Assembly: GCA_001824255.1 (NCBI GenBank)
Contig: MHWQ01000002.1
Coordinates: 139,548 to 203,547, forward strand
Length of the DNA: 64,000 nt
Reading direction: 5' to 3'
Origin: Candidatus Zambryskibacteria bacterium RIFCSPLOWO2_02_FULL_51_21
Lineage (GTDB): Bacteria; Patescibacteriota; Minisyncoccia; Phycocordibacterales; Zambryskibacteraceae
Of this stretch, positions 10,391 through 52,634 are shown piece after piece. A program made the position numbers and the translations under genes. Below the pieces are notes generated by a model. That model was not told where the DNA came from. It searched no databases and worked only from the letters and a program-made list of their open reading frames with translations. How positions within the stretch are numbered: position 1 is the first letter of the stretch; the number at the start of each line of letters is the position of its first letter.

Positions 10391-10945
10391 ATGAAAAAAG
10401 GATTAATTATCGTTCTAGCAATCGCAGCTGTGCTTCTTATCTGGGTTTTCTCCGGCTACAACGGCCTGGTGAAGTTGAATGAAAATGCTGATGCCCAGTG
10501 GGCCAAAGTCGAGACGCAATATCAGAGGCGCTTCGATTTGATTCCGAACTTGGTCAATTCGGTCAAGGCGGTGCTAACTCAGGAACAGACGGTCTTCGGC
10601 GAGCTTGCAGAGGCCCGCGCCAATTACGCCGGCGCCTCCACTCCGGACCAGAAGGCCGCCGCCGCGAGCCAGGTGGAAACTTCTTTGGGCCGCCTTATTG
10701 CCATCGTCGAGAGTTATCCTCAACTCCAGTCCTCATCCAATGTCCGCGACCTCATGACTCAACTTGAGGGCACGGAGAACAGAGTTTCCGTCGAGCGCAC
10801 CCGCTTCAACGACGAGATTCGCTCCTACAACACCGCCATCAAGACTTTTCCAACGAATATCCTTGCGCTTCTTACCGGCTTCGGCGAAAGGTCTTACTTT
10901 GAGGCTGCTTCCGGCTCAGAGAACGCTCCTCAAGTAAACTTCTAA
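10391..10945 (+). CDS. lemA: LemA family protein
   Basis: N-terminal TM. 'WAKVETQYQRRFDLIPNLV', 'ESYPQLQSSSNVRDLMTQLEGTENRVSVERTRFNDEIRSYNTAIKTFPTNIL'. Confidence 0.85.
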   Translation: MKKGLIIVLAIAAVLLIWVFSGYNGLVKLNENADAQWAKVETQYQRRFDLIPNLVNSVKAVLTQEQTVFGELAEARANYAGASTPDQKAAAASQVETSLGRLIAIVESYPQLQSSSNVRDLMTQLEGTENRVSVERTRFNDEIRSYNTAIKTFPTNILALLTGFGERSYFEAASGSENAPQVNF

Positions 10946-10947
10946 TA

Positions 10948-11607
10948 ATGTTCGGAGTTTTTCTCCTTGCCGCCATAACCCTCGTGCCTTCGGGGCATGT
11001 CAATGATTTCGCCGGCATGATTAGCCCGGCGGCGGTTCAAACGCTGGAAGGGAAACTCGTACAATTTGAGAAAGACACCGGAAACGAAATTGCCGTTGTC
11101 ACTATTCCTTCTCTCGGCTCCGACCAGACGATAGAAACATACGCCGAGGAACTCTTCCGGAAGTGGGGCATCGGCAAGGAGAAGGAGGGTAACGGAGTGT
11201 TGCTTCTGATTTCCAGGGACGACCGCGAAATGCGGATAGAAGTGGGTTACGGCCTCGAGCCGGTGATTACCGATATCGAAAGCGGCCATATCATTTCTGA
11301 CGTTCTTGTGCCGGCATTTCAGGCCGGGAAGTATGACGAAGGTGTCGTGGCCGCCACGCAACGGATTATGGATGACATCGGACGCGGCGGGTCTCCGCCG
11401 GAACGCAAACCTCCGTTTCCCTGGCAAGAGATAATCTATATCATCATCATTCTCACTATTATTTTCATAAACATCAGGCGCAAGCGGCAGGGCAAGAGCG
11501 TTATCCTCCCGATTTTCTTCGGTGGAGGGCGCGGCGGGAAAGGTGGGGGATTCGGCGGCTTCGGGGGCGGTTCTTCCGGCGGTGGCGGTGCAAGCGGGAG
11601 GTGGTAG
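10948..11607 (+). CDS. TPM-domain (YgcG/TLP18.3-like) protein with TM and Gly-rich tail
   Basis: Signal. 'AVVTIPSLG...TIETYAEELFRKWGIGKEKEGNGVLLLISRDDREMRIEVGYGLE', then a TM and a 'GGGRGGKGGGFGGFGGGSSGGGG' tail. The LemA-TPM pairing is a known neighbourhood. Confidence 0.8.
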   Translation: MFGVFLLAAITLVPSGHVNDFAGMISPAAVQTLEGKLVQFEKDTGNEIAVVTIPSLGSDQTIETYAEELFRKWGIGKEKEGNGVLLLISRDDREMRIEVGYGLEPVITDIESGHIISDVLVPAFQAGKYDEGVVAATQRIMDDIGRGGSPPERKPPFPWQEIIYIIIILTIIFINIRRKRQGKSVILPIFFGGGRGGKGGGFGGFGGGSSGGGGASGRW

Positions 11608-11683
11608 TACGTCTATATAAGGTAGGGGTTTTGCGAAAATGCCGGATTATGATAATCTATCATTAATAATTAATAATAAAAAT

Positions 11684-12850
11684 ATGAAAAAAACCGTTTT
11701 TATTATCTCCATCACCCTTATCTTCGGAACCTTCCTCATTTCGGCCAATCGAGCTAATGCGGGTTGGAGCTGGCCGTGGAAAACAAACAACGAGCAGGGT
11801 GTAGAACAGGCGAGAGGGCAAAAAGCCGGTTGGTCTGAGAGGTTTTTTAGCTGGAGAAAGAAGAATAATACTTCGGAGTCAATCGTGAAAAAAGTCACAG
11901 TAATCAGAGAAAATGGCGGCCGGGTCGATTGGCTGGCAGACAAAGATTTGATTGTCTTTGACGCCCCTCATGACGGCGGATTCAGTGACGTGTTCGTAAT
12001 GAACGGCAATGGTTCCGGCGAGAGATGCCTGACTTGCAATCATCCCGCGTTGCCGAACAAGCATATGGGTAATCCCGCCTGGCATCCTTCGGGCGAATAT
12101 GTCGTCTTTCAGGCCGAGAAGAAGGAGCACCCCGACTCTTCCGAGCTGGCAAAACCCGGCCGAGGCACGTATAACGACCTCTGGGTTATCGGCATCAAGG
12201 GCGACAAGGTCTGGAAACTGACTGACCTGCCGTCTCCTCCGGCGACCGGCGTTTTGCATCCTCACTTCTCCCATAACGGCAAGAAACTTTTCTGGGCCCA
12301 GAGAGAGAAGGGCGGCGGGTTATTCGGAGTCTGGTCCTTAAAAGTTGCCGACTTTGATGTTGTCGGCGGCATACCGAGATTGTCGGACATAAAAACATAC
12401 CAACCCGGCAAGACACCGAAATTTTACGAAAGTCATGGCTTTACCAAGAACGACAGAGGGATAATATTCTCCGCCAACTCTGAAGACCAGTCGGAAACCG
12501 GCTTCGACCAGTATGTTATGGACTTGGCGACCGGCAAGCTTACTAATTTGGTCGGTACTCCCAGAATTTGGGACGAACACGGCCAGCTTTCGAACAGTGG
12601 CAGAAAGATTGTTTGGGCTTCCAGCCGCGACCTGACGGTACCGCATCTCGACCTTTGGACAATGAACGACGACGGCTCGGACAAAAAGAGATTGACATAC
12701 TTTAACGACAAGAGCTGGAAATTCTATCTCGGAGTGAACGGCTCGCCAGCGGACAGTTCGTGGGGTCCGGGCGACAAAAAGATGGTCACCTTCGTAATTA
12801 CCGACGATAACCTAAGCTTGGGTAAAATCGTTATTCTTGACTTAAAATAA
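11684..12850 (+). CDS. TolB-like (PD40) beta-propeller repeat protein, secreted
   Basis: Signal peptide, then repeated blocks of the form 'G..i.F.s.r.G...l..m..DGS..k.LT'. Confidence 0.55.
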   Translation: MKKTVFIISITLIFGTFLISANRANAGWSWPWKTNNEQGVEQARGQKAGWSERFFSWRKKNNTSESIVKKVTVIRENGGRVDWLADKDLIVFDAPHDGGFSDVFVMNGNGSGERCLTCNHPALPNKHMGNPAWHPSGEYVVFQAEKKEHPDSSELAKPGRGTYNDLWVIGIKGDKVWKLTDLPSPPATGVLHPHFSHNGKKLFWAQREKGGGLFGVWSLKVADFDVVGGIPRLSDIKTYQPGKTPKFYESHGFTKNDRGIIFSANSEDQSETGFDQYVMDLATGKLTNLVGTPRIWDEHGQLSNSGRKIVWASSRDLTVPHLDLWTMNDDGSDKKRLTYFNDKSWKFYLGVNGSPADSSWGPGDKKMVTFVITDDNLSLGKIVILDLK

Positions 12851-12884
12851 AGTCCGCTATATTTGTGGTATAAATATGTGAATC

Positions 12885-12969
12885 GGAGGGTTCGCATAGT
12901 GGTCGAGTGCGCACGCTTGGAAAGCGTGTATGCCGCAAGGTATCGAGGGTTCGAATCCCTCACCCTCCG
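12885..12969 (+). tRNA. tRNA-Ser (anticodon GGA), no encoded CCA
   Basis: Cloverleaf drawn by hand: acceptor GGAGGGT/ACCCTCC, anticodon stem CACGC/GCGTG with loop ttGGAaa, long variable arm with GCAA loop, T-loop GGTTCGAATCC. Confidence 0.85.
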
Positions 12970-13061
12970 CACCCAGCAGGGATTCGAAGGGAAGCACGTC
13001 ATGCTTCAATTTGTCGTATTGTCAGTTGATTATTTATTGTAGGTATGGCATATTTTAGATT

Positions 13062-14678
13062 ATGAATAAATATAAAAAATTTGCCGCACAGTCAGGCATA
13101 GCGGTGGTTCTGGTTCTGATAGTCAGCTATTTTATTCCCGCTCCGCTTTCCGTGGAGGCGGCCGTGACTAGTGCTAATCACAATATTCTTTTAATAATGT
13201 TGGACGACCTGGGAGAGATTCCTTTCAATGCCTTGATTGATTCCGGACTGGCTCCAAATATAGCCGCCCTGAAAGCTCGCGGCATGACCTTCAATAATTC
13301 TTTCGTCAGTAATGCCAGAGGATGCCCGGATCGCACTACCATGCTCACAGGTCAGTACTACCATAATGGCGGGATGTCCAATGGCAAATGCGGAGTATCG
13401 TTGTTCAATGATTCCTCGACTCTGCCGGTCTGGCTTAAGAATAGAGGTTATGTGACCGGGCTCATAGGCCGCTACACCGACGGTTTGGGATATACCGATA
13501 TCAACAAAGACGGGGTAATCGACGCTGTCGATATCCGCTATGTTCCGCCGGGTTGGAATTGGTGGCAACCCTTGCTGTTTCCTTATACCGCCGGGTATGT
13601 TGCCCCAGGCGGCGTTACCGCTTGGTTTGAAAATGCCAATACTTGCGGTTATTTCCTGATGACTAAGGGAGTCGTCAAAGGCTACGACTGCGTCAACCCC
13701 GCCAATTATCAAAGCGATGTACTAACCAATGAAGCGGCAAGATATCTCCAAGCGCAAGCAAGCAGGCAAAGTCCTTTCTTCCTAGCACTAACTCCAACAG
13801 TGACCCATGTGGAAATTTGGCCAGACAATACGACCATAGACGAATACACAGACGGCTGGAAATGGAAAACGCGTGCGCCGGCAAGATACGCGGGAACTAC
13901 AGATGGTTTCTCCCTCCCTGCTTCGCCGGCTTTTAACGAGTCTGACTCAACTTTCAGTTCTAAACCGGCCTGGATTAGGGTTAGAGAGTTGCTTACAGGC
14001 GAAGATATCACCAACGTAAACACACAGTATCGCTCGGTGCTGGGAGCCTTGCGCGCAATTGATGATATGGTCGGCACTGTAACTGCAACCCTCACATCTT
14101 CCGGACAACTCGATAATACGGTGATTATTCTAACCACAGACAATGGTTGGCTGTACGGCGAACATCGCATGACGTCCAAACTGGTTGCCTTCGAGGAATC
14201 CGCCCGCGTGCCCCTCATCATGGCCGGACCGGGTATTCTGGCAAGCTCGTCTGACGCATTGGTGTTAAACAATGATTTGGCTCCTACTATTGCGGCCTTG
14301 GCCGGCGCGGCAACCGATGGAAAAGAGGATGGAGTTTCCTTGCTGCCGCTTCTGACTAATCCAAACCAGCCCTGGAGAAATAAATTCTTAATAGAAAGCT
14401 GGGCGGTAGCAAATGAGTCCACATCAGGGCCGCTTATCGTCCCCACGTTGAATGCCGTCCGTACCCATAATGAAAAACTAGTCCAGTACGGCGCTTCACA
14501 AGATTTTGCCCAGGAATTTTATCTTCTGCAATCGGACTCGCGCGAATTGGTTAATGAAGCCAATAATACGGACTTGAGCAGTCTGAAAAATCAGTTAACC
14601 AACTATCTGCAGCTTCTTGAGAATTGCGGCAAGGATGTAGGCCAGGTTGCTTGTCAGGAAATCGAATTTTCCCAATAA
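13062..14678 (+). CDS. sulfatase-like hydrolase (alkaline-phosphatase superfamily), secreted
   Basis: Signal/TM. 'NILLIMLDDLG', 'CPDRTTMLTGQY', 'ILTTDNGWLYGEH'. The Cys-x-Pro-x-Arg motif appears one residue short (C-P-D-R). Confidence 0.7.
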   Translation: MNKYKKFAAQSGIAVVLVLIVSYFIPAPLSVEAAVTSANHNILLIMLDDLGEIPFNALIDSGLAPNIAALKARGMTFNNSFVSNARGCPDRTTMLTGQYYHNGGMSNGKCGVSLFNDSSTLPVWLKNRGYVTGLIGRYTDGLGYTDINKDGVIDAVDIRYVPPGWNWWQPLLFPYTAGYVAPGGVTAWFENANTCGYFLMTKGVVKGYDCVNPANYQSDVLTNEAARYLQAQASRQSPFFLALTPTVTHVEIWPDNTTIDEYTDGWKWKTRAPARYAGTTDGFSLPASPAFNESDSTFSSKPAWIRVRELLTGEDITNVNTQYRSVLGALRAIDDMVGTVTATLTSSGQLDNTVIILTTDNGWLYGEHRMTSKLVAFEESARVPLIMAGPGILASSSDALVLNNDLAPTIAALAGAATDGKEDGVSLLPLLTNPNQPWRNKFLIESWAVANESTSGPLIVPTLNAVRTHNEKLVQYGASQDFAQEFYLLQSDSRELVNEANNTDLSSLKNQLTNYLQLLENCGKDVGQVACQEIEFSQ

Positions 14679-41761: not shown

Positions 41762-43496
41762 GTTACGCTTCCTCTCCCTTCTCATACTTCTTTTCGCGCT
41801 GTTCCTTATTGCGAAGCTTTATGCCGTGCAGATTATTTCCGGAGAAGACTTCGAGCTCAAGGCGGAGCACCAGTACGTGGCGGGGGTGAATTATTTCGAC
41901 CGGGGCTCGATTTTCTTCTCCACCAGGGACGGGTCGCTCGTGCCGGCGGCGACGGTCAAGCTCGGCTTCATCCTCCACATCAATCCCGGCATATTAATCG
42001 AGTACGGAGCGGTAGAGAGCACCTACGAGAAATTGAACGCCATCGTCCCCCTCGACAAAGCGGATTATCTCGCCAAGGCGGGGAGGACCAGCGACCCGTA
42101 CGAAGAGCTCAAGAGGCGCCTCGGGGAAGATGAGGCGAGACAAATCCAGGCCTTGAAGATTCCCGGCGTGGCCGTCACGCGCGAGAGATGGCGCGTTTAT
42201 CCCGGAGAGACCATGGCCGCCCACGCGGTGGGACTTATCGGCTACGGTCCGACGGGAAGCGAGATTGCAGGCCGCTATGGACTCGAACGCAAGTACGAAG
42301 ACGTCCTCGGCAGGAAGGGCGACGATGTCTTCGTCAATTTCTTCGCGGAAATATTTTCCAATATCAAGGATAAGGCCTTGGGTGACGGTGCGCTCGACGG
42401 CGACATCGTCACGACCATCGAGCCCTCGGTCGAGGCCTTCCTCGAAAGCGAGATTAAGAAGGTGAACGACCAGTACTTATCAGAATTTACCGGCGGCATC
42501 GTCATCGACCCCACGACGGGCGAGATTGCCGCCATGGCGCTGACGCCGACTTTCGACCCTAACTCTCCGCAAGAAGCGGAAAGTTCAAATATTTTTTCTA
42601 ATAAACTTATCGAAGACCGCTATGAAATGGGCTCGATTATAAAGGCCATGACCATGGCCTCCGCCCTTGATGCCAAAGCGGTAACGGCCAAGACCGCTTA
42701 CAACGACCCGGGCTGCATGACTTTGAATACTAAGACTTTCTGCAACTACGACCTGCGCTCTCACGGTACCAGCGTCACCATGCAGCAGGTGCTCGATCAA
42801 TCGCTCAACACCGGCGCCGCCTTCGCCGCGCTCCGGATGGGCCCGAAAAAGTTTGACGAATACATGCTCCGCTTCGGCCTGGGGGACCTCACGGGCATAG
42901 ATTTGCCGAATGAGGGCAATTCGCTCGTTTCCAATTTGAAGACCAATAGGGAACTCGAGGCCGCCCAGGCCTCCTTCGGCCAAGGCATCGCGCTCACCCC
43001 TATAACGACCGTACGGGCCATGTCGGCCTTGGCGAACGGCGGTACGCTTATTACACCCCATTTGGTCAAGGAGATACGCTATAAAATAGGACCAAATAAA
43101 ACACTTAGTTATCCGGCAGCCGGAGAAGGGGAGAGGGTCATAAGCCCGGAAGCATCGGCCGAGATTTCGAGGATGCTGACGGAAGTTGTGGATACATCTC
43201 TGCGCTACGGTCAGATGAAGATTCAGAACTACTCAATCGCCGCGAAGACCGGCACGGCGCAAATCGCAAATCCGGCCGGCGGCGGCTATTACCAGGACCG
43301 GTTCCTCCACTCCTTCTTCGGCTACTTCCCGTCCTACGACCCGGAGTTCCTGGTCTTCCTCTTCACTTATTATCCGAAAGAAGTGCAGTTTGCTTCCGAG
43401 ACCCTGACCGACTCCTTCTTCAACATCACCAAGTTCCTCATAAATTATTACGAAATCCCGCCGGATAGAGAATCTTCTCCCCAGGCCTCAATTTGA
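41727..43496 (+). CDS. ftsI: penicillin-binding protein 2 / FtsI (peptidoglycan D,D-transpeptidase)
   Basis: N-terminal TM and dimerisation domain. 'GSIIKAM' (SxxK), 'SLN', 'KTGTA'. Confidence 0.85.
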   Translation: MPLPPLLSIQNRLRFLSLLILLFALFLIAKLYAVQIISGEDFELKAEHQYVAGVNYFDRGSIFFSTRDGSLVPAATVKLGFILHINPGILIEYGAVESTYEKLNAIVPLDKADYLAKAGRTSDPYEELKRRLGEDEARQIQALKIPGVAVTRERWRVYPGETMAAHAVGLIGYGPTGSEIAGRYGLERKYEDVLGRKGDDVFVNFFAEIFSNIKDKALGDGALDGDIVTTIEPSVEAFLESEIKKVNDQYLSEFTGGIVIDPTTGEIAAMALTPTFDPNSPQEAESSNIFSNKLIEDRYEMGSIIKAMTMASALDAKAVTAKTAYNDPGCMTLNTKTFCNYDLRSHGTSVTMQQVLDQSLNTGAAFAALRMGPKKFDEYMLRFGLGDLTGIDLPNEGNSLVSNLKTNRELEAAQASFGQGIALTPITTVRAMSALANGGTLITPHLVKEIRYKIGPNKTLSYPAAGEGERVISPEASAEISRMLTEVVDTSLRYGQMKIQNYSIAAKTGTAQIANPAGGGYYQDRFLHSFFGYFPSYDPEFLVFLFTYYPKEVQFASETLTDSFFNITKFLINYYEIPPDRESSPQASI

Positions 43497-43518
43497 CATC
43501 ATACCCCCAGGGGGTATA

Positions 43519-43800
43519 TTGGAAAGCATGCATAAGCATATTGAGAGAGAAAGGGCCGTAAGGCGCCTGCGCCGGGCGGCGGGGCAGATTCGCGGTTTGG
43601 AGAGGATGGTCGAGGAAGGGAAGTATTGCATTGATATAATTAACCAGTCCTTGGCGGTCAAGGGCGCTCTTTCCGCGTTTGAGAGCGACATCCTCGAAAA
43701 CCATTTGAAGACTCACGTCGCCGAACAAGTAAGGAGAGGCGAGAAAAACAAGGTGGCGAAAGAAATTCTCTCAATTTACAAAGTATCCATAGGCAAATAA
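43519..43800 (+). CDS. csoR: CsoR/RcnR-family metal-sensing transcriptional repressor
   Basis: 'RLRRAAGQIRGLERMVEEGKYCIDIINQSLAVKGAL...ENHLKTHV' four-helix DUF156 pattern with Cys/His/His ligands. Confidence 0.75.
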   Translation: MESMHKHIERERAVRRLRRAAGQIRGLERMVEEGKYCIDIINQSLAVKGALSAFESDILENHLKTHVAEQVRRGEKNKVAKEILSIYKVSIGK

Positions 43801-43804
43801 TCTT

Positions 43805-45874
43805 ATGCACAATCACGACTGCTGCCACGGGAATCATGAGACCCATCACAAGCACGAGGAGGGTACTTTCTATACCTGCCCGATGCATCCGGAAATTCTC
43901 CAGGACCGCCCCGGCATGTGCCCAGAGTGCGGCATGAATCTGGTGCCGGTAAAGAAAAAACATGATTCGCACGACCACGACAAACATGCGGGCCACTCGA
44001 CCGCCATGTTTTTGCGCAAATTTTGGGTAAGTCTTATCCTAACTATTCCCGTCATTCTCTACGCCGATGCTGTCGCAATAATTTTCAAGTGGACTCCGCC
44101 GGCCTTCCCCGGCTCCCGTTATTTGAGCTTCGTACTAGGTTCAATTGTCTTCTTTTACGGCGGCTGGGTCTTCCTTGCTTCGGCAAAGAGGGAAGTGGAG
44201 GCGCGTCTGCCCGGTATGATGACGCTTATCGCCCTGGCAATTTCGGCGGCCTATCTCTGGAGCGTTTACGCGGTCTTCGCGGGCGAGGAAGCTCTCTTCT
44301 GGGAACTGACTACTCTTATTACCATCATGCTTTTGGGCCACTGGCTTGAGATGCGCGCGGTCTCCGGCGCGCAAGGAGCCCTGAAAGAGCTTTCGAAGCT
44401 TCTGCCTGACATGGCAGAAGTGATTCGTGGCGGCAAAACGGAAACAATTCCGCTTGCCGAACTCCGCGAAAGTGACATTGTCTTCGTCCGTCCGGGAGCA
44501 AAGATTCCCGCCGACGGTGTCATTATGGAAGGGGAAACCGAGGTCAATGAATCCATGGTTACGGGCGAATCCAAACCCGTGGGGAAAAAAGAGAATGACG
44601 CCGTCATCGCCGGCACCATCAACGGCGACGGTTCTCTCAAAATCAAGGTAACGCAGATCGGCGAACACACTTTCCTAGCGGGTGTCATGCGCCTGGTGGC
44701 TGAGGCGCAGGCCTCCAAATCCCGGCTTCAAATCCTCTCGGACCGCGCCGCGCTCTACCTTACTTTCGTCGCGGTCATAGGCGGAGCCGCGACGCTTGTT
44801 GCCTGGCTTCTTGCCGGAGCTGAAGTGAGTTTCGCCGTAGCCCGACTTGTCGCTGTCCTCGTCATTGCCTGCCCGCACGCGCTCGGTCTCGCCGTGCCTC
44901 TTATCGCCTCGATTTCCACGACCAAGGCGGCGCAGAACGGCTTCCTCGTCAAACAACGCCTCTCGCTTGAGGCGGCGCGTTCCGTCGATACGGTTCTCTT
45001 TGACAAAACCGGAACCTTGACCAAGGGGGAGTTCGGGGTAGTTTCCGCGAGTTCCGACGAAGCATTGGCCCTGGCCGCGTCAGTCGATTCGCATTCCGAG
45101 CATCCTGTTGCCAAGGGTATCGTGAGAGAGGCAATAAAGCGCGGCCTTGAGTTGAAAGAAGTAAAGAATTTCAAGCGCATCAAAGGCGTCGGTTCCGAAG
45201 CAGAACTTGTGGATATAGGTTCTGCAAGTTTAAGTGTAAAGAAAATTTTCGTCGGCCACCGGGGCGAAGACGGCATAGTGGTAGAAGTGGATGGCAAAAA
45301 AATCGGCGACATCAAGCTTGCGGATGAAATCAGGCCCGAAGCGCGCGAAGCAATCGCCGCACTGAAGAAAATGAACATCAAGGTAGCAATGATTACCGGC
45401 GACTCGGAAGAAGTGGCCGCCTCTGTCGCCAAAGAACTTGGGATAGACGAATACTTCGCCAGAGTGATGCCGGGGGAGAAATCCGAGAAAATAAAAATTC
45501 TTCAATCGAAAGGACAGAAGGTCGCCATGGTCGGCGACGGCATCAATGACGCCCCGGCGCTTACCCGAGCCGACCTGGGACTCGCGATTGGCGCCGGCAC
45601 CAACGTCGCCATAGAATCTGCCGGCATAATTCTCGTGAGGAACGACCCCCGCGATATTGCAAAAGTGATTAACCTTTCGCGCCTGACTTACACCAAGATG
45701 ATTCAGAATCTCTTCTGGGCAACGGGCTACAACGTGGTAGCCATGCCCTTGGCGGCCGGAGTGCTTTACTCCAAAGGCATTGTGCTTGAACCGGCGGTGG
45801 CGGCGGTGCTTATGTCCGCGAGCACCTTCATCGTAGCCATCAATGCCATGCTGTTAAGAGGAAGGAAAATATGA
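43805..45874 (+). CDS. copB: copper-translocating P1B-type ATPase, CopB-like (CPH motif, His-rich N-terminus)
   Basis: N-term 'MHNHDCCHGNHETHHKHEEG...TCPMHPEI...CPECGM...HDSHDHDKHAGH'. TM 'IACPHALGLA' (CPH). 'DKTGTLT', 'GDGINDAP'. Confidence 0.9.
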   Translation: MHNHDCCHGNHETHHKHEEGTFYTCPMHPEILQDRPGMCPECGMNLVPVKKKHDSHDHDKHAGHSTAMFLRKFWVSLILTIPVILYADAVAIIFKWTPPAFPGSRYLSFVLGSIVFFYGGWVFLASAKREVEARLPGMMTLIALAISAAYLWSVYAVFAGEEALFWELTTLITIMLLGHWLEMRAVSGAQGALKELSKLLPDMAEVIRGGKTETIPLAELRESDIVFVRPGAKIPADGVIMEGETEVNESMVTGESKPVGKKENDAVIAGTINGDGSLKIKVTQIGEHTFLAGVMRLVAEAQASKSRLQILSDRAALYLTFVAVIGGAATLVAWLLAGAEVSFAVARLVAVLVIACPHALGLAVPLIASISTTKAAQNGFLVKQRLSLEAARSVDTVLFDKTGTLTKGEFGVVSASSDEALALAASVDSHSEHPVAKGIVREAIKRGLELKEVKNFKRIKGVGSEAELVDIGSASLSVKKIFVGHRGEDGIVVEVDGKKIGDIKLADEIRPEAREAIAALKKMNIKVAMITGDSEEVAASVAKELGIDEYFARVMPGEKSEKIKILQSKGQKVAMVGDGINDAPALTRADLGLAIGAGTNVAIESAGIILVRNDPRDIAKVINLSRLTYTKMIQNLFWATGYNVVAMPLAAGVLYSKGIVLEPAVAAVLMSASTFIVAINAMLLRGRKI

Positions 45875-45879
45875 TATAA

Positions 45880-46272
45880 TTGATATTAATCATGAAATCC
45901 GCGCTCTCATTGCTCATAGCCGTAAGCTTCGCCGGAGTAGCCCTCCTGGGCTTCGCCATGGTAAACCACAGCGCGAGCCACGCCAATCCGGATTGCTTTG
46001 TCGCTACCTTCGCAAACAGCGCTACCTGCCCGGATACTTTGATAAACTTCGTCAATTACCACGCTTCGGCTCTGCAGAGTCTGTCGCAAGCACTTCTCGC
46101 TGTGGGATTGCTTATCGCCGGCATTATCCTTCTCCCGGCCTTTTTCAAATTAATTGCGGCGAATTTCCTTATACCACTCGAGCGGCGGCGAGAACTCTCT
46201 TTTGCCACAGCCATTAGCGGAAGAAAAATTACCCGCTGGCTCGCGCTATTTGAAAACTCTCCCTCTTTCTAG
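45880..46272 (+). CDS. hypothetical membrane protein with His/Cys cluster
   Basis: TM, then 'NHSASHANPDCFVATFANSATCPD', then a second TM. Sits in the copper island. Confidence 0.4.
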   Translation: MILIMKSALSLLIAVSFAGVALLGFAMVNHSASHANPDCFVATFANSATCPDTLINFVNYHASALQSLSQALLAVGLLIAGIILLPAFFKLIAANFLIPLERRRELSFATAISGRKITRWLALFENSPSF

Positions 46273-46304
46273 TTAGTTTGCCTTACCAGAACTAACTAAA
46301 ATAA

Positions 46305-46802
46305 ATGAAAAAAGAATTATTGGTGGGTGTATTGGGCTTAGTGCTCGTGCTCGTGGCTTCTGTCTGGTTCTTCAGGCCGGGGCCGGAAACAATCGCTACT
46401 ACAAACTCAAGCGTGAGCTCGCTTTCGGCTTCGGAAATTTCGTACGACTTCGGCAGAATCAGTATGAAGAACGGAGTGGTGGAGAAAACGTTTACGGTGA
46501 CCAATACAAGCTCCGAAGACGTTCTCATCGAGAAGATAACTACTTCCTGCATGTGCACTACAGCATTCATTACTCGCGCGAGCGGAGAAGAGAAGGGTCC
46601 TTACGGTATGGTAGGCCACGGCGCTTCGGTGCCCAAAGCCAATGAGACCATCAAGGCGGGCGAGACCAGAACGGTGCGCGTAGTCTTCGACCCCAACGCT
46701 CACGGTCCAGCGGGCGTAGGCCTTATAGAAAGGCTCGTCATGCTTGAGGACAGCTACGGCGACCGCCTCGACCTCTCTATCAGCGTCACAGTCACTCCCT
46801 AA
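46305..46802 (+). CDS. DUF1573-like secreted Ig-fold protein (CxC motif)
   Basis: Signal/TM. 'VEKTFTVTNTSSEDVLIEKITTSCMCTT...VRVVFDPNAHG'. DUF1573 commonly neighbours CcdA/DsbD. Confidence 0.5.
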   Translation: MKKELLVGVLGLVLVLVASVWFFRPGPETIATTNSSVSSLSASEISYDFGRISMKNGVVEKTFTVTNTSSEDVLIEKITTSCMCTTAFITRASGEEKGPYGMVGHGASVPKANETIKAGETRTVRVVFDPNAHGPAGVGLIERLVMLEDSYGDRLDLSISVTVTP

Positions 46803-46803
46803 C

Positions 46804-47583
46804 ATGAAGAGAACAATTATTCTCATTGTCATAGCCGCTCTCGCGGTGGCTGGCATTGCCTTCCTCAAGCAATCAGACATCGTCGCGAGCATTATCTGGA
46901 ACGCGAGCTCCGAAGGCTCGTGGCTCTTGCCACTTGTCCTCATGGCGGCGATTCTCGATAGCGTGCATCCGTGTTCCTTCTCGATTCTCCTCATTACCAT
47001 CGCCTTCCTCTTCGGACTCCAGTTCTCGAGGAAGAGAATTCTCCAGATTGGCGGCACGTATGTCCTCGGAATCTTCGCGGCTTACTTCGCCATAGGCATA
47101 GGCGCTCTGAAGGTGCTTCATCTCTTCAACACGCCACACTTCATGGGGAAATTAGGAGCAGTACTCCTAATTTCATTCGGCATCATTAATCTTATCAACC
47201 GTTTCTTCCCGGCCTTCCCATTGAAGCTAAAGATGCCTTCGGTCTCCCACAAATGGATGGCGCCTCTCATGGAGAAGGCGAGCATTCCGGCCGCCTTCGG
47301 CCTGGGTCTTCTTGTCGGCATCTGCCAGTTCCCGTGCATGGGCGGACCGTACCTCATGGTAATCGGTCTGCTTAAAGACCAGTTGACCTACTTCTCGGGT
47401 CTTGGTTATCTCCTGCTATATAACCTGATTCTCATCGTGCCGCTTGTCGTCGTGCTTTGGCTCGCTTCCGGGAAACAGGTGGTTGAGAAAATGGATGAGT
47501 GGAAGAGGACAAACATGGCAAGCGTGCGCCTCTGGGCGGGCATCGCCATGGTAATTCTCGGTCTCTTAATTCTAGTAATCTAG
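46804..47583 (+). CDS. ccdA: CcdA/DsbD-type transmembrane thiol-disulfide electron transporter
   Basis: Multi-TM. Cys in TM1 ('DSVHPCSFSILL') and TM4 ('GICQFPCMGGPY'). Confidence 0.7.
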   Translation: MKRTIILIVIAALAVAGIAFLKQSDIVASIIWNASSEGSWLLPLVLMAAILDSVHPCSFSILLITIAFLFGLQFSRKRILQIGGTYVLGIFAAYFAIGIGALKVLHLFNTPHFMGKLGAVLLISFGIINLINRFFPAFPLKLKMPSVSHKWMAPLMEKASIPAAFGLGLLVGICQFPCMGGPYLMVIGLLKDQLTYFSGLGYLLLYNLILIVPLVVVLWLASGKQVVEKMDEWKRTNMASVRLWAGIAMVILGLLILVI

Positions 47584-47587
47584 CAAC

Positions 47588-47746
47588 ATGGCTAAAATAA
47601 AATTAGGCGACCTTATCGCCAGAATCACCAAGTTCCTCCACATCCCTCATTGCGACAACTGCGAGAAGCGGCGTGTCGTCTTGAACGAAGTCGGCGAGGT
47701 GGGAATCAAAGAAACATTGAAAAGACTAAAGCACTGCTGCGACTAG
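47588..47746 (+). CDS. small Cys-rich peptide (52 aa: ...HIPHCDNCEKRR...KHCCD)
   Basis: ORF begins 4 nt after the ccdA stop. Contains HCxxC and a C-terminal HCC. Confidence 0.3.
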   Translation: MAKIKLGDLIARITKFLHIPHCDNCEKRRVVLNEVGEVGIKETLKRLKHCCD

Positions 47747-47770
47747 TTCGACTAGCTCACCATAAATAAC

Positions 47771-48496
47771 ATGGAAACAGAGAACAATAAATTTCTTCTG
47801 CCCGGCGCCATAGTGGTAGCCGGCATCATCGTCGCTCTGGGCCTTGTCCTCGACGTGGACGAGCCAAGGACGCCCATTGCTGCGCAAGGGAAGCCGGTCG
47901 AAACGGAAGGCTTGACCCTGCCTGTAACCTGGGGCGACTTGGGCAGGCAAATGGTCGCAAACGGCACCATAGACCCGGAGAAGCTCCAGTACGCTTACGA
48001 ATTCGACAATAAAGAATTGGAGATTACGAGAGAAAATGCCGGAAGATTGCTCAACGTCCTGTGGGCTCTGGGCCTCTCGAGCAAGAACGAGATTCTCGAG
48101 CAGGGGGAGATGACCGACCCGCGCTTCGGCGGAGTAGAGAACTTTGCTTCGACCGCCGGCTGGACCGCGGCCAGAGGCTCCGCCATGAGCCACTACAGCA
48201 TGCACCGCTATTTCGAACTGGATTCGGAACAGCAGAACAGGGTGGACAGGGTCTCAAGAGACATCTACCGGCCGTGCTGCAGCAACTCCGCGCACTTCCC
48301 GGACTGCAATCACGGCATGGCCATGCTCGGGCTCCTGGAACTTCTGGCAAGCCAGGGGGCAGGGGAGGAGGAGATGCGAAACGCGGCTCTAGCCGTCAAT
48401 TCTTACTGGTTCCCGTCCCGAAGTAGCCCCGGAGGGTGCTCGATAGAGAGTGGCGCAACGCCAGCTCCTACGAAACAGAGCGGTTGCGGGTTATAA
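47771..48496 (+). CDS. membrane-anchored Cys/His-rich protein (candidate metal-binding)
   Basis: N-terminal TM, then an extracytoplasmic domain containing 'YRPCCSNSAHFPDCNHGMAM'. High-GC patch. Confidence 0.45.
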   Translation: METENNKFLLPGAIVVAGIIVALGLVLDVDEPRTPIAAQGKPVETEGLTLPVTWGDLGRQMVANGTIDPEKLQYAYEFDNKELEITRENAGRLLNVLWALGLSSKNEILEQGEMTDPRFGGVENFASTAGWTAARGSAMSHYSMHRYFELDSEQQNRVDRVSRDIYRPCCSNSAHFPDCNHGMAMLGLLELLASQGAGEEEMRNAALAVNSYWFPSRSSPGGCSIESGATPAPTKQSGCGL

Positions 48497-48526
48497 TTGA
48501 GACATTACAAAGTTAACTTCAAAAAC

Positions 48527-48661
48527 ATGATGGGATATGGATTCGGTTATCAGGGCATGATGAGCGGCGGGGCGGGTATCTTCATGAGCGTTATATGGCT
48601 CGTGTTTATAATCGACCTCGTCCTCCTCGGTGTCTGGCTCTGGAAGCAGATAAATAAATAA
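48527..48661 (+). CDS. small hydrophobic peptide (44 aa, 1 TM)
   Basis: MMGYGFGYQGMMSGGAGIFMSVIWLVFIIDLVLLGVWLWKQINK. Ends 18 nt before tRNA-Glu. Confidence 0.25.
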   Translation: MMGYGFGYQGMMSGGAGIFMSVIWLVFIIDLVLLGVWLWKQINK

Positions 48662-48679
48662 GTTAAAGTAGTCGGGTTA

Positions 48680-48751
48680 GGCCCTATCGTCTATCGGCTA
48701 GGACACAGCCTTCTCAAGGCTGGAAGCAGGGTTCGACTCCCTGTAGGGTCA
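48680..48751 (+). tRNA. tRNA-Glu (anticodon CTC), no encoded CCA
   Basis: GGCCCTA-TC-GTCT-ATCGGCTA-GGAC-A-CAGCC-tTCTCaa-GGCTG-GAAG-CAGGG-TTCGACT-CCCTG-TAGGGTC-A. Confidence 0.85.
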
Positions 48752-48766
48752 TAAAACGGCGCATGA

Positions 48767-48790
48767 GAAACGAGCCCTGCGGCTCGTTTT
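48767..48790 (+). terminator. hairpin terminator after tRNA-Glu
   Basis: 'aaacgagccctgcggctcgtttt'. Confidence 0.55.
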
Positions 48791-48865
48791 GCCGCACCAG
48801 TTCTTCAAGTTCTTCAGAAGGCCCCGCTCCGGCGCGGACCTTTTTGTTTTCATTAATCCAAAAAC

Positions 48866-49855
48866 TTAATCCCTCCTGCTCACACCGCGCTCTTTCTTAA
48901 GGAGTTTGATATCGTCGTAAAGGGTGGCCTGATTCCCGCCTCTCTTCTTCGAGTGATATAAGGCCACATCGACGTGATGGAGGAGGTCTCCGGGCCTTTT
49001 CCCGTCGCGGGGATAAGCGGCTACGCCTATGCTCACGGATGTTTTTATTCTCTTTTTGCCCACCCTCAAGACCGGCTTGAAAATTTTTATTATTTTCTTG
49101 GCGAAGTGCTCTATATCCTGCATCTTCTTGAAGCTTCTGAGCAGGATGACGAACTCGTCTCCTCCGAGTCTTGCCACCACGTCAGATAATCTGACATTCT
49201 TCGTCAGCCGGGCGGATATCTCGATCAATATCAGATCCCCGACACGATGCCCCTCCTCGTCGTTGATAAGCTTGAAGTTGTTGAAATCCAGGAAAAAAAT
49301 GGCGAGAAGGTAATTCTTCTTCTCGTCGTGAATGGAGTTGACCAGATACTCTTCGAAAAAGGCCCTGTTCGGCAATCCCGTCAGATAATCGTGGGTGGAG
49401 AGATGGAGAACGGTTTTTTGCAGATGTTTCTGGTCCGTGATATCACGCATTATTTTAGAGTAGCCGTGGTGCGCGTTGGTTTTGTCCAGAGTGGAGGTCA
49501 GGACGCCGGTGCTCCAGAAACGGGTGCCATTCTTCCTCCGGTATTCTCTCTCGTCAAGGTGCCGACCTTTCTTGAGGGCGCGCCCCAAGTCCGCTTTCGG
49601 CAATCCGTCCTTGCCGTCTTTAGATACGAATAACGCGGAGAAATTTCTCCCGATGATTTCACTCCGGCGATAGCCGAATAGCTTCCTGGCGCCCTGGTCC
49701 CAGCTGGTGATACGCCCCCTCTTGTCTAGCATGAAAATGGCGTAATCCTTGATGTTTTCGACCAGGGAACGGTAGCTCTGCTCTATGGCGTGGTCCACCC
49801 GGCGGCGGTTATGAGAGACCTTCATATACATATGACTATACACCCTTCTTGACAC
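48866..49855 (-). CDS. PAS-domain sensor diguanylate cyclase (PAS + GGDEF)
   Basis: PAS 'ITSWDQGARKLFGYRRSEIIGRNFSALF'. 'RLGGDEFVIL' GGDEF. Confidence 0.85.
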   Translation of the reverse strand: MSRRVYSHMYMKVSHNRRRVDHAIEQSYRSLVENIKDYAIFMLDKRGRITSWDQGARKLFGYRRSEIIGRNFSALFVSKDGKDGLPKADLGRALKKGRHLDEREYRRKNGTRFWSTGVLTSTLDKTNAHHGYSKIMRDITDQKHLQKTVLHLSTHDYLTGLPNRAFFEEYLVNSIHDEKKNYLLAIFFLDFNNFKLINDEEGHRVGDLILIEISARLTKNVRLSDVVARLGGDEFVILLRSFKKMQDIEHFAKKIIKIFKPVLRVGKKRIKTSVSIGVAAYPRDGKRPGDLLHHVDVALYHSKKRGGNQATLYDDIKLLKKERGVSRRD

Positions 49856-49928: not shown

Positions 49929-50180
49929 ATGAATTTCCAAGGAAAAGTCTTCGCCGTCGTAAGGAAAATTCCGAAAGGGAAAGTTCTGACGTACAAAGAA
50001 GTAGCAAAGAGGGCAGGGAAGCCCAAGGCCTATCGGGCGGTAGGGACTATCTTGAATAAGAATTTCAATAAACAGATTCCTTGCCACCGCGTTATCCGCT
50101 CAGACGGAAAAGCCGGCGGTTATAATCTGGGTAGCAAGCTCAAAGAGCGAATCCTGAAGAACGAAGGCTTTAGGATTTAA
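49929..50180 (+). CDS. MGMT-family DNA-binding domain protein (Ogt C-terminal domain only)
   Basis: 'IPKGKVLTYKEVAKRAG...AVGTILNKN...IPCHRVIRSDG' (PCHRV motif). 83 aa. Confidence 0.75.
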   Translation: MNFQGKVFAVVRKIPKGKVLTYKEVAKRAGKPKAYRAVGTILNKNFNKQIPCHRVIRSDGKAGGYNLGSKLKERILKNEGFRI

Positions 50181-50201: not shown

Positions 50202-52499
50202 TCACGCTGTTGCTTCGACTGGCACGAAGTCCGTCTCGCACACGCCGCCCGCGCAAGCAAGCTCCTTGGCGCCGTTTGTCATATCTTCCTGCTCATAGGC
50301 CACGAGTTTCGAGAAATCGAGGTGTCCGAGCTCCTTCAAGCGCCTTTCGTACTCCTCTTTCGTTATCTCTTCGTACGGCGCGAGCTGATAGACGTGATTG
50401 TTCCTGGGAAGGAAGGAGAGACCGCCGACGATATCCCAGTTTTTGTAAACGAAGTTTGCCACCGATATCCATTCGTCATCGCCGATATAAATGGTGACCG
50501 AAGGATTGTGTTCGGTGAAATGAACCTTGAGCCTCTTCCACTCCTCAAGCATCTCAAGCGCCGTTACGTCCTTGTTGACGAGCGCGCCCTCGGGAGCCTT
50601 GCAGGGGAATTCCATGACCATGGTCGCCGCGTTCGAGGTCGAATAGCCGACTTCGGGGAAGACCGGCACGCCCTGGTTCCTGGCAAGCTTCAATAGAGGG
50701 TCATTGGCGGAGATGCGCACCCGGCGGATGTAGTAGTGCGAGTACCAAGTGTGCATGCCGGAGCCCACGCCCAAGAGCTGGCCGGAGTTGCCATGGGGCT
50801 TCACGCAAGTGATGGCAGTCGATTCGTTCTTGCCGAAGCGCTTGGCGTATTTCTTGTTCGTCTTCATCGATTCTTCGCGTAAAATTTGCAAATTCTTGTC
50901 GTTCCTCACGAGCTTGTTGTCGTAATAGCCGGTGATGGAGACGCCGAGCAATTGTTCCTTCTCGCAATTCTTCTTCCACTCTTTCGAGAGATAGCCGAAG
51001 TCGGTAAGCGTCGCCTGGTAAGTGCCTAGAAGCGTTGCCAGGCGCATCTTCCTCTTCAAATTTTCCATATCATCTCCCGGCCGCACCACAATCGAGGTGA
51101 GATTGCAGAATTGCTTCGACTGGAGGTAAATCTCGCCGCAAGGATTGACTCCCGGCTGCTTGGCTTTCTTCAAAACATCCCAGCGCCTCTTGGGCACCTG
51201 GGCCGACAAGCTCCCGCGGTTAAATATTCCTCGCTCGCCGGAATGCGAAGTGACGAGTGCCGTCCACTCCTGCATGAATTCTTCGGCCGTCGGCTTGGCC
51301 TCGTAGACCGCGGAATTGTTTGCCATCGAGCGCTGGCCCTCCGTCTGCCAGAAGGCGCCCTTCTTGGCATCGCGGACTTCGGTATCATCGAGAGAGGAGA
51401 GTGAGATGAGGGCCGAGCGGCGCACGCCTCCGGCAACGACAATAAGCCCTATCTGGCAAATGATGTCGTGCAGGTCGAGAGTAGAGAGGCGGCGGCCCTG
51501 CTTGGCAAGCATCTTCCTCCTGGTAAATTGCATAAGCTCCTGAAGAGGGGCCGGGCCAGAAGCGCGGCCGCCCATGGTGGCAAGTTTGGCTCCAGCGGGG
51601 CGGATGAGGGAGTAGTCGAGCTCAACGTCCTTGCCCTTCTCCCAGGCGGTGCAGGCCGCCACATACGCGTTGCACCAGCCCTCCTTGCTGTCCTCAATAG
51701 TAATCTTCGGCGCCATCTGGCCCGTCTGCTTCTGAATCTGGGGGAACTTGCCCACGTTCTCAGGCTCGACGGAGAAACCGCATCCGGCTCCGCACATCGA
51801 GACATACATTATTTCGGAGAGGTCGCGCCAAGAAGTGGGCGCGATGTAAGCGCAATTATAAGCGGTGACATTTGAAGCGTCGGCCGCTTTGCCCGCCGAC
51901 CACAGGAGGCGCATGGAAGGGCAAATGTCCTGGACTAATATTGCCTCACGCACTTCCGAGTATTCGCTTGAGGTCAGGGCGTCTCCCATTTTTCCCTTCA
52001 TGTATTCCATGAAGCGGTCTATCGCCTCAATCCAAGTCTCGCGTCGGCCCAGCTCCGGCCTCCATTTCGAATAGAACTGGTAGAAAATAAATTCCTGATA
52101 CGGAGTTTTGAAGTACTTGCTACTATCGGCAATCTTGTCCTTGACCTCTTGGGGGATAAGAGCGGTATGCTCCCTCGCCTTGGTGCGCTCGGCGCGGTAG
52201 AGAATATAGGCCTTGGCCGTCGCCGTAAGCTTCTGGAGCATGAGCTCCATCTCCACTAGGTCCTGGATGCCCTCAACCGTAGGGACAAACTTCTTGTCGA
52301 ATGAGCGGCGCAAAGAAAGTTTTCTCACCACCGATTCGGTAATCTTCTCCGCCACTCCGGGACGATATTCCTTGGCTTCCTGCAGAGCCTTAGTAACAGC
52401 GTGAGTGATTTTATCCGGATTGAAAGGGACTGTCGAACCGTCGCGTTTAATGATATTCGAGAGTCGAGAAGGGCGAGTGGCTGGAGCTTTTTTGGGCAT
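50202..52499 (-). CDS. nrdJ: class II (adenosylcobalamin-type) ribonucleotide reductase with N-terminal ATP-cone
   Basis: ATP cone 'IIKRDGSTVPFNPDKITHAVTKAL'. Active-site 'VNPCGEIYLQSKQFCNLTS'. No glycyl-radical tail. Start set at MPKKAP. Confidence 0.75.
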   Translation of the reverse strand: MPKKAPATRPSRLSNIIKRDGSTVPFNPDKITHAVTKALQEAKEYRPGVAEKITESVVRKLSLRRSFDKKFVPTVEGIQDLVEMELMLQKLTATAKAYILYRAERTKAREHTALIPQEVKDKIADSSKYFKTPYQEFIFYQFYSKWRPELGRRETWIEAIDRFMEYMKGKMGDALTSSEYSEVREAILVQDICPSMRLLWSAGKAADASNVTAYNCAYIAPTSWRDLSEIMYVSMCGAGCGFSVEPENVGKFPQIQKQTGQMAPKITIEDSKEGWCNAYVAACTAWEKGKDVELDYSLIRPAGAKLATMGGRASGPAPLQELMQFTRRKMLAKQGRRLSTLDLHDIICQIGLIVVAGGVRRSALISLSSLDDTEVRDAKKGAFWQTEGQRSMANNSAVYEAKPTAEEFMQEWTALVTSHSGERGIFNRGSLSAQVPKRRWDVLKKAKQPGVNPCGEIYLQSKQFCNLTSIVVRPGDDMENLKRKMRLATLLGTYQATLTDFGYLSKEWKKNCEKEQLLGVSITGYYDNKLVRNDKNLQILREESMKTNKKYAKRFGKNESTAITCVKPHGNSGQLLGVGSGMHTWYSHYYIRRVRISANDPLLKLARNQGVPVFPEVGYSTSNAATMVMEFPCKAPEGALVNKDVTALEMLEEWKRLKVHFTEHNPSVTIYIGDDEWISVANFVYKNWDIVGGLSFLPRNNHVYQLAPYEEITKEEYERRLKELGHLDFSKLVAYEQEDMTNGAKELACAGGVCETDFVPVEATA

Positions 52500-52634
52500 T
52501 TTTGGCAGGTTAGTAAACGTTAATAAACCTAAATTTTTAATGTCATTACATTTTAATACAATCGCAATCAAAAAAACTGGGGATATGTATTGACAAAGGG
52601 GCAGGCTTGTATGCGCCTGCCCCTTGGATGAATT

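Follow-up and report, generated by a model that had tools for sequence, protein, structure and literature searches.

The CsoR-regulated copZA and copA operons of Bacillus, Streptomyces, Thermus and Mycobacterium have an autoregulated repressor, a G-tract pseudopalindromic type-2 operator that lies over the promoter, and a P1B copper ATPase as the first structural gene. Copper tolerance is also conferred by the ScsB/ScsC reductive pathway (PMC3322552); in the Scs system, a transporter of the DsbD family (ScsB) feeds envelope thiol proteins (ScsC/ScsD). A related reductive logic serves assembly of the CuA site, in that CcdA reduces ResA, StoA and possibly Sco, and TlpA supplies reductant to Sco and CoxB ahead of metallation (PMC9145763). 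Here we describe a locus with features of all three, located at positions 43519-48751 of a 64,000-nucleotide stretch (the window) from Candidatus Zambryskibacteria bacterium RIFCSPLOWO2_02_FULL_51_21, a member of the Patescibacteria. The locus comprises eight open reading frames (ORFs), from csoR to a small peptide gene that we call p44, followed by tRNA-Glu; all of the genes listed in an earlier reading of the sequence (the original prediction) are present, and all are on the plus strand. We favour, with a little better than even confidence, the reading that this is a copper-responsive, CsoR-repressed operon in which a Cu(I)-exporting CopB-type pump is combined with a conserved accessory module that handles thiols/copper at the outer face of the membrane. 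At the level of the operon, there is good support for a copper-responsive efflux operon with a conserved envelope thiol/copper-handling module. The action of CsoR on the pump follows from what is established for these families, and we infer all of the later steps.

The first gene, csoR (43519-43800), encodes a repressor of the metal-sensing CsoR/RcnR family, as had been proposed: it matches PF02583 with 88.2 bits (cut-off 22.8; E = 4.7e-25) and solved CsoRs in phmmer with E values of 1e-13 to 1e-14. Its promoter (TTGACA-16 nt-TATATT, 43493-43520) fits the consensus at 11 of 12 positions and overlaps the ftsI stop codon. The spacer of this promoter is a perfect 17-bp palindrome, ATACCCCCAGGGGGTAT (43501-43517), lying between the -35 and -10 elements; it is found once in the window, with 0.1 chance matches expected. 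The palindrome satisfies both the consensus ATATACCCCTNAGGGGTATAT and the TAC-X9-GTA rule of the streptomycete CsoR type-2 operator, which was defined experimentally (PMC3902906). In 1.18 Mb of related loci we found 30 copies of the corresponding box, ATACCC-N5-GGGTAT, and 26 of these are directly upstream of csoR; other boxes precede stand-alone modules that begin with p130, a membrane protein described below (loci L032 and L086), a gene for an HMA-DsbD_2 protein (L017) and an ATPase gene (L015). Since the gaps between the eight ORFs are only 0-32 nt, the block is a single transcription unit. Thus, the idea of a copper-linked unit is borne out by the Cu-type P1B ATPase, by the repressor of the CsoR family and by the perfect CsoR box that the promoter contains. 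The csoR product is 93 amino acids (aa) long from a TTG start and 90 aa from the ATG at 43528, which is the start used in public annotation; this ATG sits ∼7 nt past the -10 hexamer, and so the csoR mRNA may be leaderless.

The pump gene (43805-45874) encodes a P1B ATPase with a match of 581 bits to TIGR01511 (Cu-ATPase), as well as matches to the Pfam families E1-E2_ATPase, Hydrolase and HMBD. The full P1B-3 signature is present, in agreement with the CopB/P1B-3-like subtype assigned to it originally: CPH at aa 356-358 in transmembrane segment (TM) 4, YNVVAMP in TM5, MSASTFIVAIN in TM6, and DKTGT. The N-terminus has 13 His among its first 70 aa, a vicinal Cys pair (HDCCHG) and a zinc-ribbon-like HMBD domain (PF19335), with no HMA domain, and the CPC pumps of sister loci do have HMA domains. 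The further label of a 'Cu2+-type' pump is outdated, because the P1B-3 group is now held to export Cu(I), at least in the account of the reclassification that PMC7558416 gives, citing Purohit 2018. The TM4 motif of the ATPase beside the module is CPC in 33 loci, CPH in 21 and CPD in 9; therefore, the module accompanies copper pumps in general. The CPD ATPases, found in L015, L018, L019, L038, L043, L049, L062, L072 and L081, pair this motif with MSASSIIVATN. To our knowledge, CPD in TM4 is not among the listed P1B subgroups.

The ligand positions of the sensor raise the question of whether the operon might sense and handle another metal, such as Ni/Co (as RcnR does), Ag(I) or Zn/Cd. Alignment to solved CsoRs gives C37-H62-H66 (C-H-H) for this protein, as in the T. 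thermophilus CsoR (3aai), and C-H-C for the Geobacillus and Streptomyces CsoRs; in this respect the locus differs from the CsoR-copA operons that have C-H-C sensors. Together with the N-terminal His (MHKH), this arrangement recalls the H-C-H-H of RcnR rather than C-H-C, and both the weak NCBIfam matches to RcnR and FrmR and the His in the P1B-3 transport site fit the same idea. However, we consider another metal quite improbable. The best family matches are those to copper proteins (RicR, 8.8e-17, in NCBIfam for the sensor, and TIGR01511 for the pump), the C-H-H CsoR of T. thermophilus itself sits in a copper homeostasis operon, and the operator is a CsoR type-2 box. Moreover, sister loci pair C-H-C CsoRs and CPC CopA pumps with the same module, and the neighbours include CopG/DUF411, DUF305, Cupredoxin_1 and HMA proteins. 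In related loci, 28 CsoRs are C-H-H and 19 are C-H-C; the C-H-C sensors go with CPC pumps in 13 of 13 cases, and the C-H-H sensors go with CPH, CPC or CPD pumps.

The copper-responsive operon differs from the CsoR-copA operons in having no CopZ/HMA chaperone, and in having six additional co-transcribed genes that are without counterpart in the described ones. To see how widely these genes occur together, we scanned for relatives of the 241-aa protein p241 in one genome per species, which gave at least 582 genomes, and analysed the neighbourhoods of 80 species-level loci among the matches listed, using iterative profile searches of every ORF. All 80 of these loci are from Patescibacteria. The core order is p130 (45880-46272 in the window), DUF1573 with a CxC motif (46305-46802), a gene for a CcdA-like protein (46804-47583), a small gene encoding a C-terminal CC motif (the CC-tail gene; here p52, 47588-47746) and p241 (47771-48496), always on one strand. 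The original prediction had made its case depend on this order recurring elsewhere, and it clearly does, since most of the 80 loci share it. Where p241 has at least 3.5 kb of sequence on its upstream side (64 loci), we found p130 in 57, the CcdA-like gene in 56 and DUF1573 in 49, and among the 37 loci with wide flanks, there is a Cu-type P1B ATPase in 35, csoR in 23 and a pair of HMA-DsbD_2 and Cupredoxin_1 genes in 11. Known copper families also occupy the variable slots, namely DUF411/CopG (L040, 4.5e-23) and DUF305/DUF4142 with YHS (L086). For the organism itself, the same gene order is found in public gene calls for 20 contigs, and p241 and the 259-aa CcdA-like protein are 100% identical to database records of Ca. 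Zambryskibacteria RIFCSPLOWO2_02_FULL.

Some of the variable neighbours were noted in passing. In L040 (9017-9976), the DUF411/CopG gene is accompanied by one for a Cys-rich 146-aa protein, and the L086 region (5558-13553) also has a gene for a weakly DsbB-like protein. In many loci, the HMA-DsbD_2 gene (∼340 aa) and that for an anchored Cupredoxin_1 protein lie 3' of p241, for example in L001 (8962-10402), L003 (9030-10453) and L017 (11445-12969, with its own CsoR box). The cupredoxin carries FDC...CGMGM, which we take to be CupA-like. This pair was not found in the window, and the window copy of p241 is a short form, ∼50 aa shorter than most of its homologs; thus, the window cluster is a reduced version of the arrangement.

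Most of the families in the module are unannotated and restricted to Patescibacteria. In Pfam and NCBIfam scans, p130, p52, p241, p44 and the two other types of CC-tail protein had no match, and so the proteins without assignment in the original prediction were not claimed by unrelated, well-characterised families. Four of the five accessory families are without a Pfam or NCBIfam model despite having thousands of members (for the CcdA-like protein, more than 3100 clusters at 90% identity). A search of the literature found no account of the module or of the p241 motif string, and nothing that connects DUF1573 with copper. Patescibacteria are ultra-small and mostly uncultured episymbionts with pared-down genomes; because this gene set has been kept in hundreds of their species, it likely matters to these bacteria. 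The conserved neighbourhood gives these families a testable place in a copper stimulon and in an envelope thiol relay, and it makes p241 a candidate for a new metal site.

The strongest functional evidence in support of an electron relay that would run from the CcdA-like protein outward is an exchange of partners. In the slot beside the CcdA-like gene, 49 of the 64 loci have DUF1573 only, 10 have only a CxxxC redoxin, none has both and 5 have neither (Fisher 2e-8 for mutual exclusion, uncorrected for phylogeny). The redoxin is a membrane-anchored Redoxin/AhpC-TSA protein (Pfam 3e-11) with a Sco-like CxxxC (CYPAC) and a weak SCO1 match. Moreover, the subtype of the CcdA-like protein follows the partner: the single-Cys form, with HPCS/NPCA plus FPC, goes with DUF1573 (49 cases) and APCC plus CCAP goes with the redoxin (10 cases), with 2 exceptions. 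A thioredoxin-fold protein beside CcdA is the textbook electron acceptor (PMC9145763; PMC8238504). Thus, given that the redoxin is a standard CcdA acceptor and that the two partners are exchanged, DUF1573 is most simply its functional replacement. The proposal that DUF1573 and CcdA deliver reducing equivalents to the outer side therefore gains real support from the exchange of partners and from the covariation of subtypes, and it provides a first functional hypothesis for a CxC domain of the DUF1573 family, in which it would substitute for a reductase of the thioredoxin fold.

The DUF1573 protein itself is a membrane-anchored, immunoglobulin (Ig)-like protein that belongs to PF07610 (52 bits, cut-off 26.1), with a match of 1.4e-6 to the HYDIN/VesB Ig-like family; comparison of its sequence with the PDB gave chance matches only. 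The TSCMCT motif, which holds the CxC (CMC), is invariant, and the loops GPFGMPGHG and DPxAHGPAG are conserved. Selenocysteine (UGC) forms of DUF1573 have been reported (PMC9312934), and these fit a redox-active CxC. We also examined the long DUF1573 ORFs of L007 (8349-9920) and L026 (8353-9912) as candidate DUF1573-CcdA fusions of the Rosetta-stone kind, and rejected them; they are fusions in which the DUF1573 CxC lies at the C-terminus of a YncE-like seven-bladed beta-propeller. These two loci have p130 and p241 and no CcdA-like gene.

Assignment of the 259-aa polytopic protein to the CcdA family, as stated in the original prediction, does not hold by direct profile match, and does hold transitively. 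Neither this protein nor its L001 orthologue has a Pfam match at E ≤ 0.1, including to PF02683, and NCBIfam gives a weak match to ArsG (2.6e-5). In hhalign, however, the protein matches the APCC/CCAP subtype (95.5%, E = 1.4e-8), and that subtype in turn matches PF02683 with 29-47 bits, above the gathering threshold of 27.1. The protein has at least 3149 close homologs, some of which are named CcdA and a few of which have PF02683 or PF11139. Its profile gave chance matches only against the PDB, and only E values of 0.02-0.03 against the DsbD_2 domain of the HMA-DsbD_2 proteins. The invariant Cys residues are those of HPC57 and C174-x-FPC178, each motif placing a Cys next to a Pro, as expected of CcdA; HPC57 and FPC178 are invariant in 27 CcdA-like sequences and both lie in predicted hydrophobic segments. 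By analogy, the CcdA-like protein would pass electrons from thioredoxin to an outer thiol protein, a role supported only indirectly, through the alternation of DUF1573 and the redoxin.

These observations suggest how the operon might work. When copper rises in the cytoplasm, CsoR would leave its box and the eight genes would be co-transcribed; the ATPase would then pump Cu(I) outward. The divergent CcdA/DsbD-family protein would move reducing equivalents across the membrane via its TM-embedded Cys residues and hand them to the CxC of DUF1573, in the slot occupied elsewhere by the TlpA/Sco-like CxxxC redoxin. DUF1573 would in turn keep the Cys residues of p241 reduced, with p241 offering a Cys3/His4 site in a CcmH-like three-helix domain, and a Cys-x10-Cys loop in p130 may be kept reduced likewise. 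The reduced thiols could reverse disulfides whose formation copper had catalysed, or they could bind the exported Cu(I), hand it on or render it harmless. At the inner face, beside the p241 anchor, p52 might be a dedicated thiol/metal partner of this relay or a substitute for CopZ. Among the mechanisms considered, this proposed path, in which electrons would pass from the CcdA-like protein via DUF1573 to p241, has the best support. The logic proposed here is that of Scs, in which a DsbD-superfamily transporter also feeds envelope thiol proteins in the service of copper tolerance. Unlike in Scs, the TM protein here is a minimal, divergent CcdA-like protein that lacks the alpha and gamma domains, the place of the thioredoxin-fold ScsC as client is taken by the Ig-fold CxC protein DUF1573, p241 and p130 have no Scs equivalents, and the host envelope is of the Gram-positive type found in Patescibacteria. 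The system thus uses mostly unannotated families to follow a known logic, in which CsoR/CopA is joined to a CcdA-dependent reduction in the envelope of the kind found in Scs or TlpA/Sco.

The last large protein of the operon, p241, is membrane-anchored and rich in Cys and His (RPCCSNSAHFPDCNHGM). Its family is large (>6845 clusters at 90% identity and 396 at 50%), and none of the 98 members scanned has a Pfam match. The invariant residues are H141, H145, the stretch R167-PCC-x-NS-x-HFPDCNHGM-183 and the FASTGGW motif. The tail is Gly/Cys-rich (GGCS...GCGL), and in most family members it is Gly-rich with two GCG motifs. A cupredoxin or CuA-like fold had been suggested for this protein; the predicted model is instead alpha-helical, with no Greek-key topology and no match to a cupredoxin, and that suggestion is withdrawn. 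The model contains a CcmH-like subdomain, CcmH being the only structural match of p241, and the N-terminal domain of ∼130 aa is without a structural match. The order of secondary structure (helix, Cys loop, helix, helix) is that of CcmH, consistent with a three-helix bundle, and in hhalign the Cys loop takes the register of the CcmH active site, in that RPCC-x-N falls over RCPKCQN and ELMASQG-x-S over ELMQEGKS (E = 0.2-0.67). The p241 profile gave chance matches only against PDB sequences. CcmH is the last thiol reductant after DsbD/CcdA and CcmG, and thus the CcdA-like protein, DUF1573 or the redoxin, and p241 would reproduce that logic.

The same parts logic, and the fact that CcmH is the only structural match of p241, could also be read to mean that the module is a remnant or variant of the thiol branch of cytochrome c maturation (CcdA, ResA/CcmG, CcmH) that serves haem proteins, and some records do annotate the CcdA-like protein as 'cytochrome c biogenesis protein CcdA'. 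We give this idea almost no credence. No window ORF of at least 80 aa has a CxxCH motif, and among 1691 ORFs of at least 120 aa around the modules, a lone CxxCH occurs in 11 and more than one in none. Similarly, no haem lyase genes were seen in the annotated neighbourhoods, and the consistent neighbours are copper genes. The LRCxxC of CcmH/NrfF (PF03918) is absent from p241, which has RPCC-x-NS-x-HFPDCNHG. Compared with the CcmH/NrfF/CycL proteins of System I, p241 shows no significant sequence similarity, carries PCC...C.H rather than LRCxxC and has the additional N-terminal domain, and there are no cytochromes c at the module.

A different role for p241 is suggested by the extreme conservation of its 17-residue Cys/His/Met loop, its two His and FASTGGW, which look more like an active or metal site than like a relay. 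In this case, p241 would be a new copper- or metal-dependent surface enzyme or a copper sink, and the remaining genes would serve its assembly: the pump would supply Cu(I), p130 and DUF1573 would act as chaperones, and the CcdA-like protein would keep the ligand Cys residues reduced, by analogy with CcoI, Sco, PCuAC and TlpA for the copper sites of oxidases. TlpA and Sco provide the precedent (PMC9145763). The Met/His loops of DUF1573 are in keeping with this role, as is the redoxin alternative with its Sco-like CxxxC and weak SCO1 match, and as is the minimal cluster of L092, which lacks both CcdA and DUF1573. We nevertheless think this explanation unlikely, although it and the metal relay considered below are the two rivals that we take seriously. 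There is no recognisable catalytic fold in p241, the neighbours give no clue to a substrate, the window copy is shorter than most homologs, and cuproenzyme assembly factors are not usually placed under a repressor that responds to copper excess. The comparison with CuA assembly has the same two sides. The locus resembles it in that a CcdA-type reductant would keep the Cys residues of a copper site reduced, a Cu ATPase would supply the outer face, and a Sco-like CxxxC redoxin takes the DUF1573 slot in 10 loci; it differs in having no cytochrome oxidase/CoxB target and a copper-excess repressor, and p241 is unrelated to CoxB. The L092 cluster consists of csoR, a gene for a 173-aa protein, the ATPase, a p241 fusion and Cupredoxin_1/COX2, with no p130. 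Its p241 fusion (8001-9494) is one of several long p241 forms of ∼500 aa, the others being P0278, P0287, P0297 and P0374, in which an N-terminal multi-TM domain with GCPxCG, itself without a Pfam match, precedes p241.

The remaining two core proteins of the copper-responsive operon are small. The 130-aa membrane protein p130 has 2-3 hydrophobic segments and lies mostly directly 3' of the pump; family members share ∼26% identity. Its only invariant residues are the Cys of C39-x10-C50, in the loop after TM1, with His residues nearby (NHSASH precedes C-x10-C in the window copy), and its cytoplasmic C-terminal tail carries a conserved W-L-x-L-x-E-N-S-P-S (WLSLxENSPS). From these features it is plausible that p130 is a membrane-tethered acceptor of exported Cu(I). 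The 52-aa product of p52 has HCDNC and a C-terminal HCCD, and orthologues in the same slot of L090, L091 and L053 share 26 invariant residues with it, including IPHC-xx-CEKRR and HCCD; p52 is therefore a real gene, and its product is presumably small, soluble and cytoplasmic. Elsewhere, the slot is filled by a multi-TM protein of ∼150 aa with CPxC and a C-terminal KMKNCC (type A, 12 loci) or by a soluble protein of ∼165 aa with a C-terminal KLADCC(D/N)E (type B, 25 loci). The hidden Markov models (HMMs) of types A and B did not match p52 significantly; the link among them comes from gene position, the C-terminal CC(D/E) and the L053 tail, which is intermediate between type B and p52. An in-frame fusion of type A to the p241 anchor, found in P0245, places a CC motif at the cytoplasmic face beside p241, and such fusions show that p241 would work with a thiol station at the inner face, for electrons or for metal.

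What the CC motifs carry is the point on which an alternative turns. In a relay for thiophilic metal, Cu(I) or Ag(I) would cross the membrane from one thiol pair to the next, by way of the CcdA-like protein, the CC-tail protein and p241, either to metallate an outer protein or to retrieve and route copper, much as the MerP/MerT/MerA tails do for Hg(II). Vicinal Cys residues occur throughout the system (PCC in p241, a C-terminal CC in all three kinds of CC-tail protein, APCC/CCAP in TM1/TM4 of the alternative CcdA-like subtype, HDCC in the ATPase N-terminus), p241 has flexible Cys-bearing tails (GCG...GCG), the CC-tail protein can be fused to the p241 anchor, and the HMA-DsbD_2 fusions in the same clusters suggest communication between DsbD-like TM domains and a metal-binding domain in the cytoplasm. 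In Mer-type relays (MerP, MerT/MerF and the C-terminal CC of MerA), vicinal Cys residues likewise lie to either side of the membrane, in TM helices as well as on flexible tails. Unlike in Mer, there is no MerR or MerA here, the regulator and pump are of the copper type, and no sequence relationship was detected. Furthermore, DsbD_TM/CcdA proteins are established transporters of electrons, not metal, the outer partner alternates with a thioredoxin-fold redoxin that is a standard CcdA client, a dedicated Cu ATPase already exports Cu(I), and copper import under a copper-induced promoter would be counterproductive. Thus, we regard movement of metal along this path as unlikely; if it is true that the relay carries copper and not electrons, a scaffold of the DsbD type would be working by a novel principle of transport.

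A number of observations weigh against a copper-responsive operon with an electron relay to p241. With respect to control, the x-C-H-C fingerprint of Cu(I)-sensing CsoRs is not found in this C-H-H protein, and a recognisable CsoR box is present at only 3 of 37 stand-alone core modules; the case for copper control thus comes from the context of this operon and does not extend to every module. Nor are the locus counts phylogenetically independent. With respect to the relay, vicinal CC motifs, as in p241, the CC tails and APCC/CCAP, occur more typically in metal relays than in redox pairs, and the Met/His loops of DUF1573 could bind Cu directly. With respect to p241, an HMM built from 120 CcmH sequences found no p241 among all locus ORFs, and a Foldseek search of p241 against the PDB gave no match, so that the domain appears CcmH-like only at the level of predicted fold and of position and is not a member of the CcmH family. 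Finally, p241 has more invariant Cys/His residues than a simple dithiol reductase needs, and it may be a metalloprotein or enzyme. A bolder proposal, which we advance tentatively, as possible but on balance doubtful, is that p130, DUF1573, the CcdA-like protein, the CC-tail protein and p241 form an undescribed, Patescibacteria-specific copper machine. In it, p241 would be a new surface Cys3/His4 metalloprotein of novel fold with a CcmH-like subdomain, and vicinal-Cys stations on both membrane faces would move Cu(I), or electrons dedicated to copper, unlike in Cop, Cus, Pco, Scs or Sco.

The copper-responsive operon lies directly after ftsI and ends at tRNA-Glu (anticodon CTC, 48680-48751, ARAGORN), and the island of the original prediction could be read as one that was acquired horizontally, inserted at the tRNA gene and interrupting the dcw cluster. 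The position of the block after ftsI, the tRNA-Glu directly at its 3' flank and the mildly raised GC over p241 speak for this reading, which we consider highly improbable. The GC of 47.7-48.5 kb is indeed 0.568, but this is only at the 91.5th percentile of 800-nt windows and the composition is ordinary: the GC of the whole block is 0.536, compared to 0.524 ± 0.014 for equal-sized blocks (within 1 standard deviation), and GC3 equals that of ftsI and of the ribonucleotide reductase (RNR) gene nearby. There is no integrase ORF in the window, and no repeat of the tRNA-Glu 3' end that could be an att-like site. The module family is spread across the phylum, in at least 582 species, and the module sits by the same ftsI and tRNA-Glu, in other orientations, in two further genomes of this clade. 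In another Zambryskibacteria genome (L001/L002), it lies inverted between RNR and mraW-ftsL-ftsI, and its 3' end adjoins tRNA-Glu(CTC); the L090 copy and ftsI are convergent, and the same tRNA-Glu flanks the 3' end of that copy on the other strand. Thus, tRNA-Glu is a syntenic neighbour and not an island boundary. Similarly, the short mraZ-mraW-ftsL-ftsI cluster ends at ftsI in all three genomes, including the relatives in which the module is inverted or convergent, and so the module does not truncate the dcw order, as had been thought.

The last ORF of the operon, p44/p54 (48497-48661), encodes a Gly/Met-rich peptide with a single TM (MMGYGFGYQGMMSGG...WLWKQINK), and is annotated publicly as a 44-aa gene; a homologous peptide is found near the module in 6 other loci. 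The tRNA-Glu begins 18 nt past this last ORF of the repressible operon. A perfect TATAAT at 48607-48612, inside the p44 coding sequence, could be the tRNA-Glu promoter, and a hairpin, AACGAGCC-CTGC-GGCTCGTT followed by TT (∼48769-48792), lies just 3' of the tRNA. Farther 3' of the block are genes for a PAS-GGDEF protein (48866-49855, minus strand), a small MGMT-like DNA_binding_1 protein (49929-50180, plus strand) and the ATP-cone RNR (50202-52571, minus strand), which is a neighbour of the module in L001 as well.

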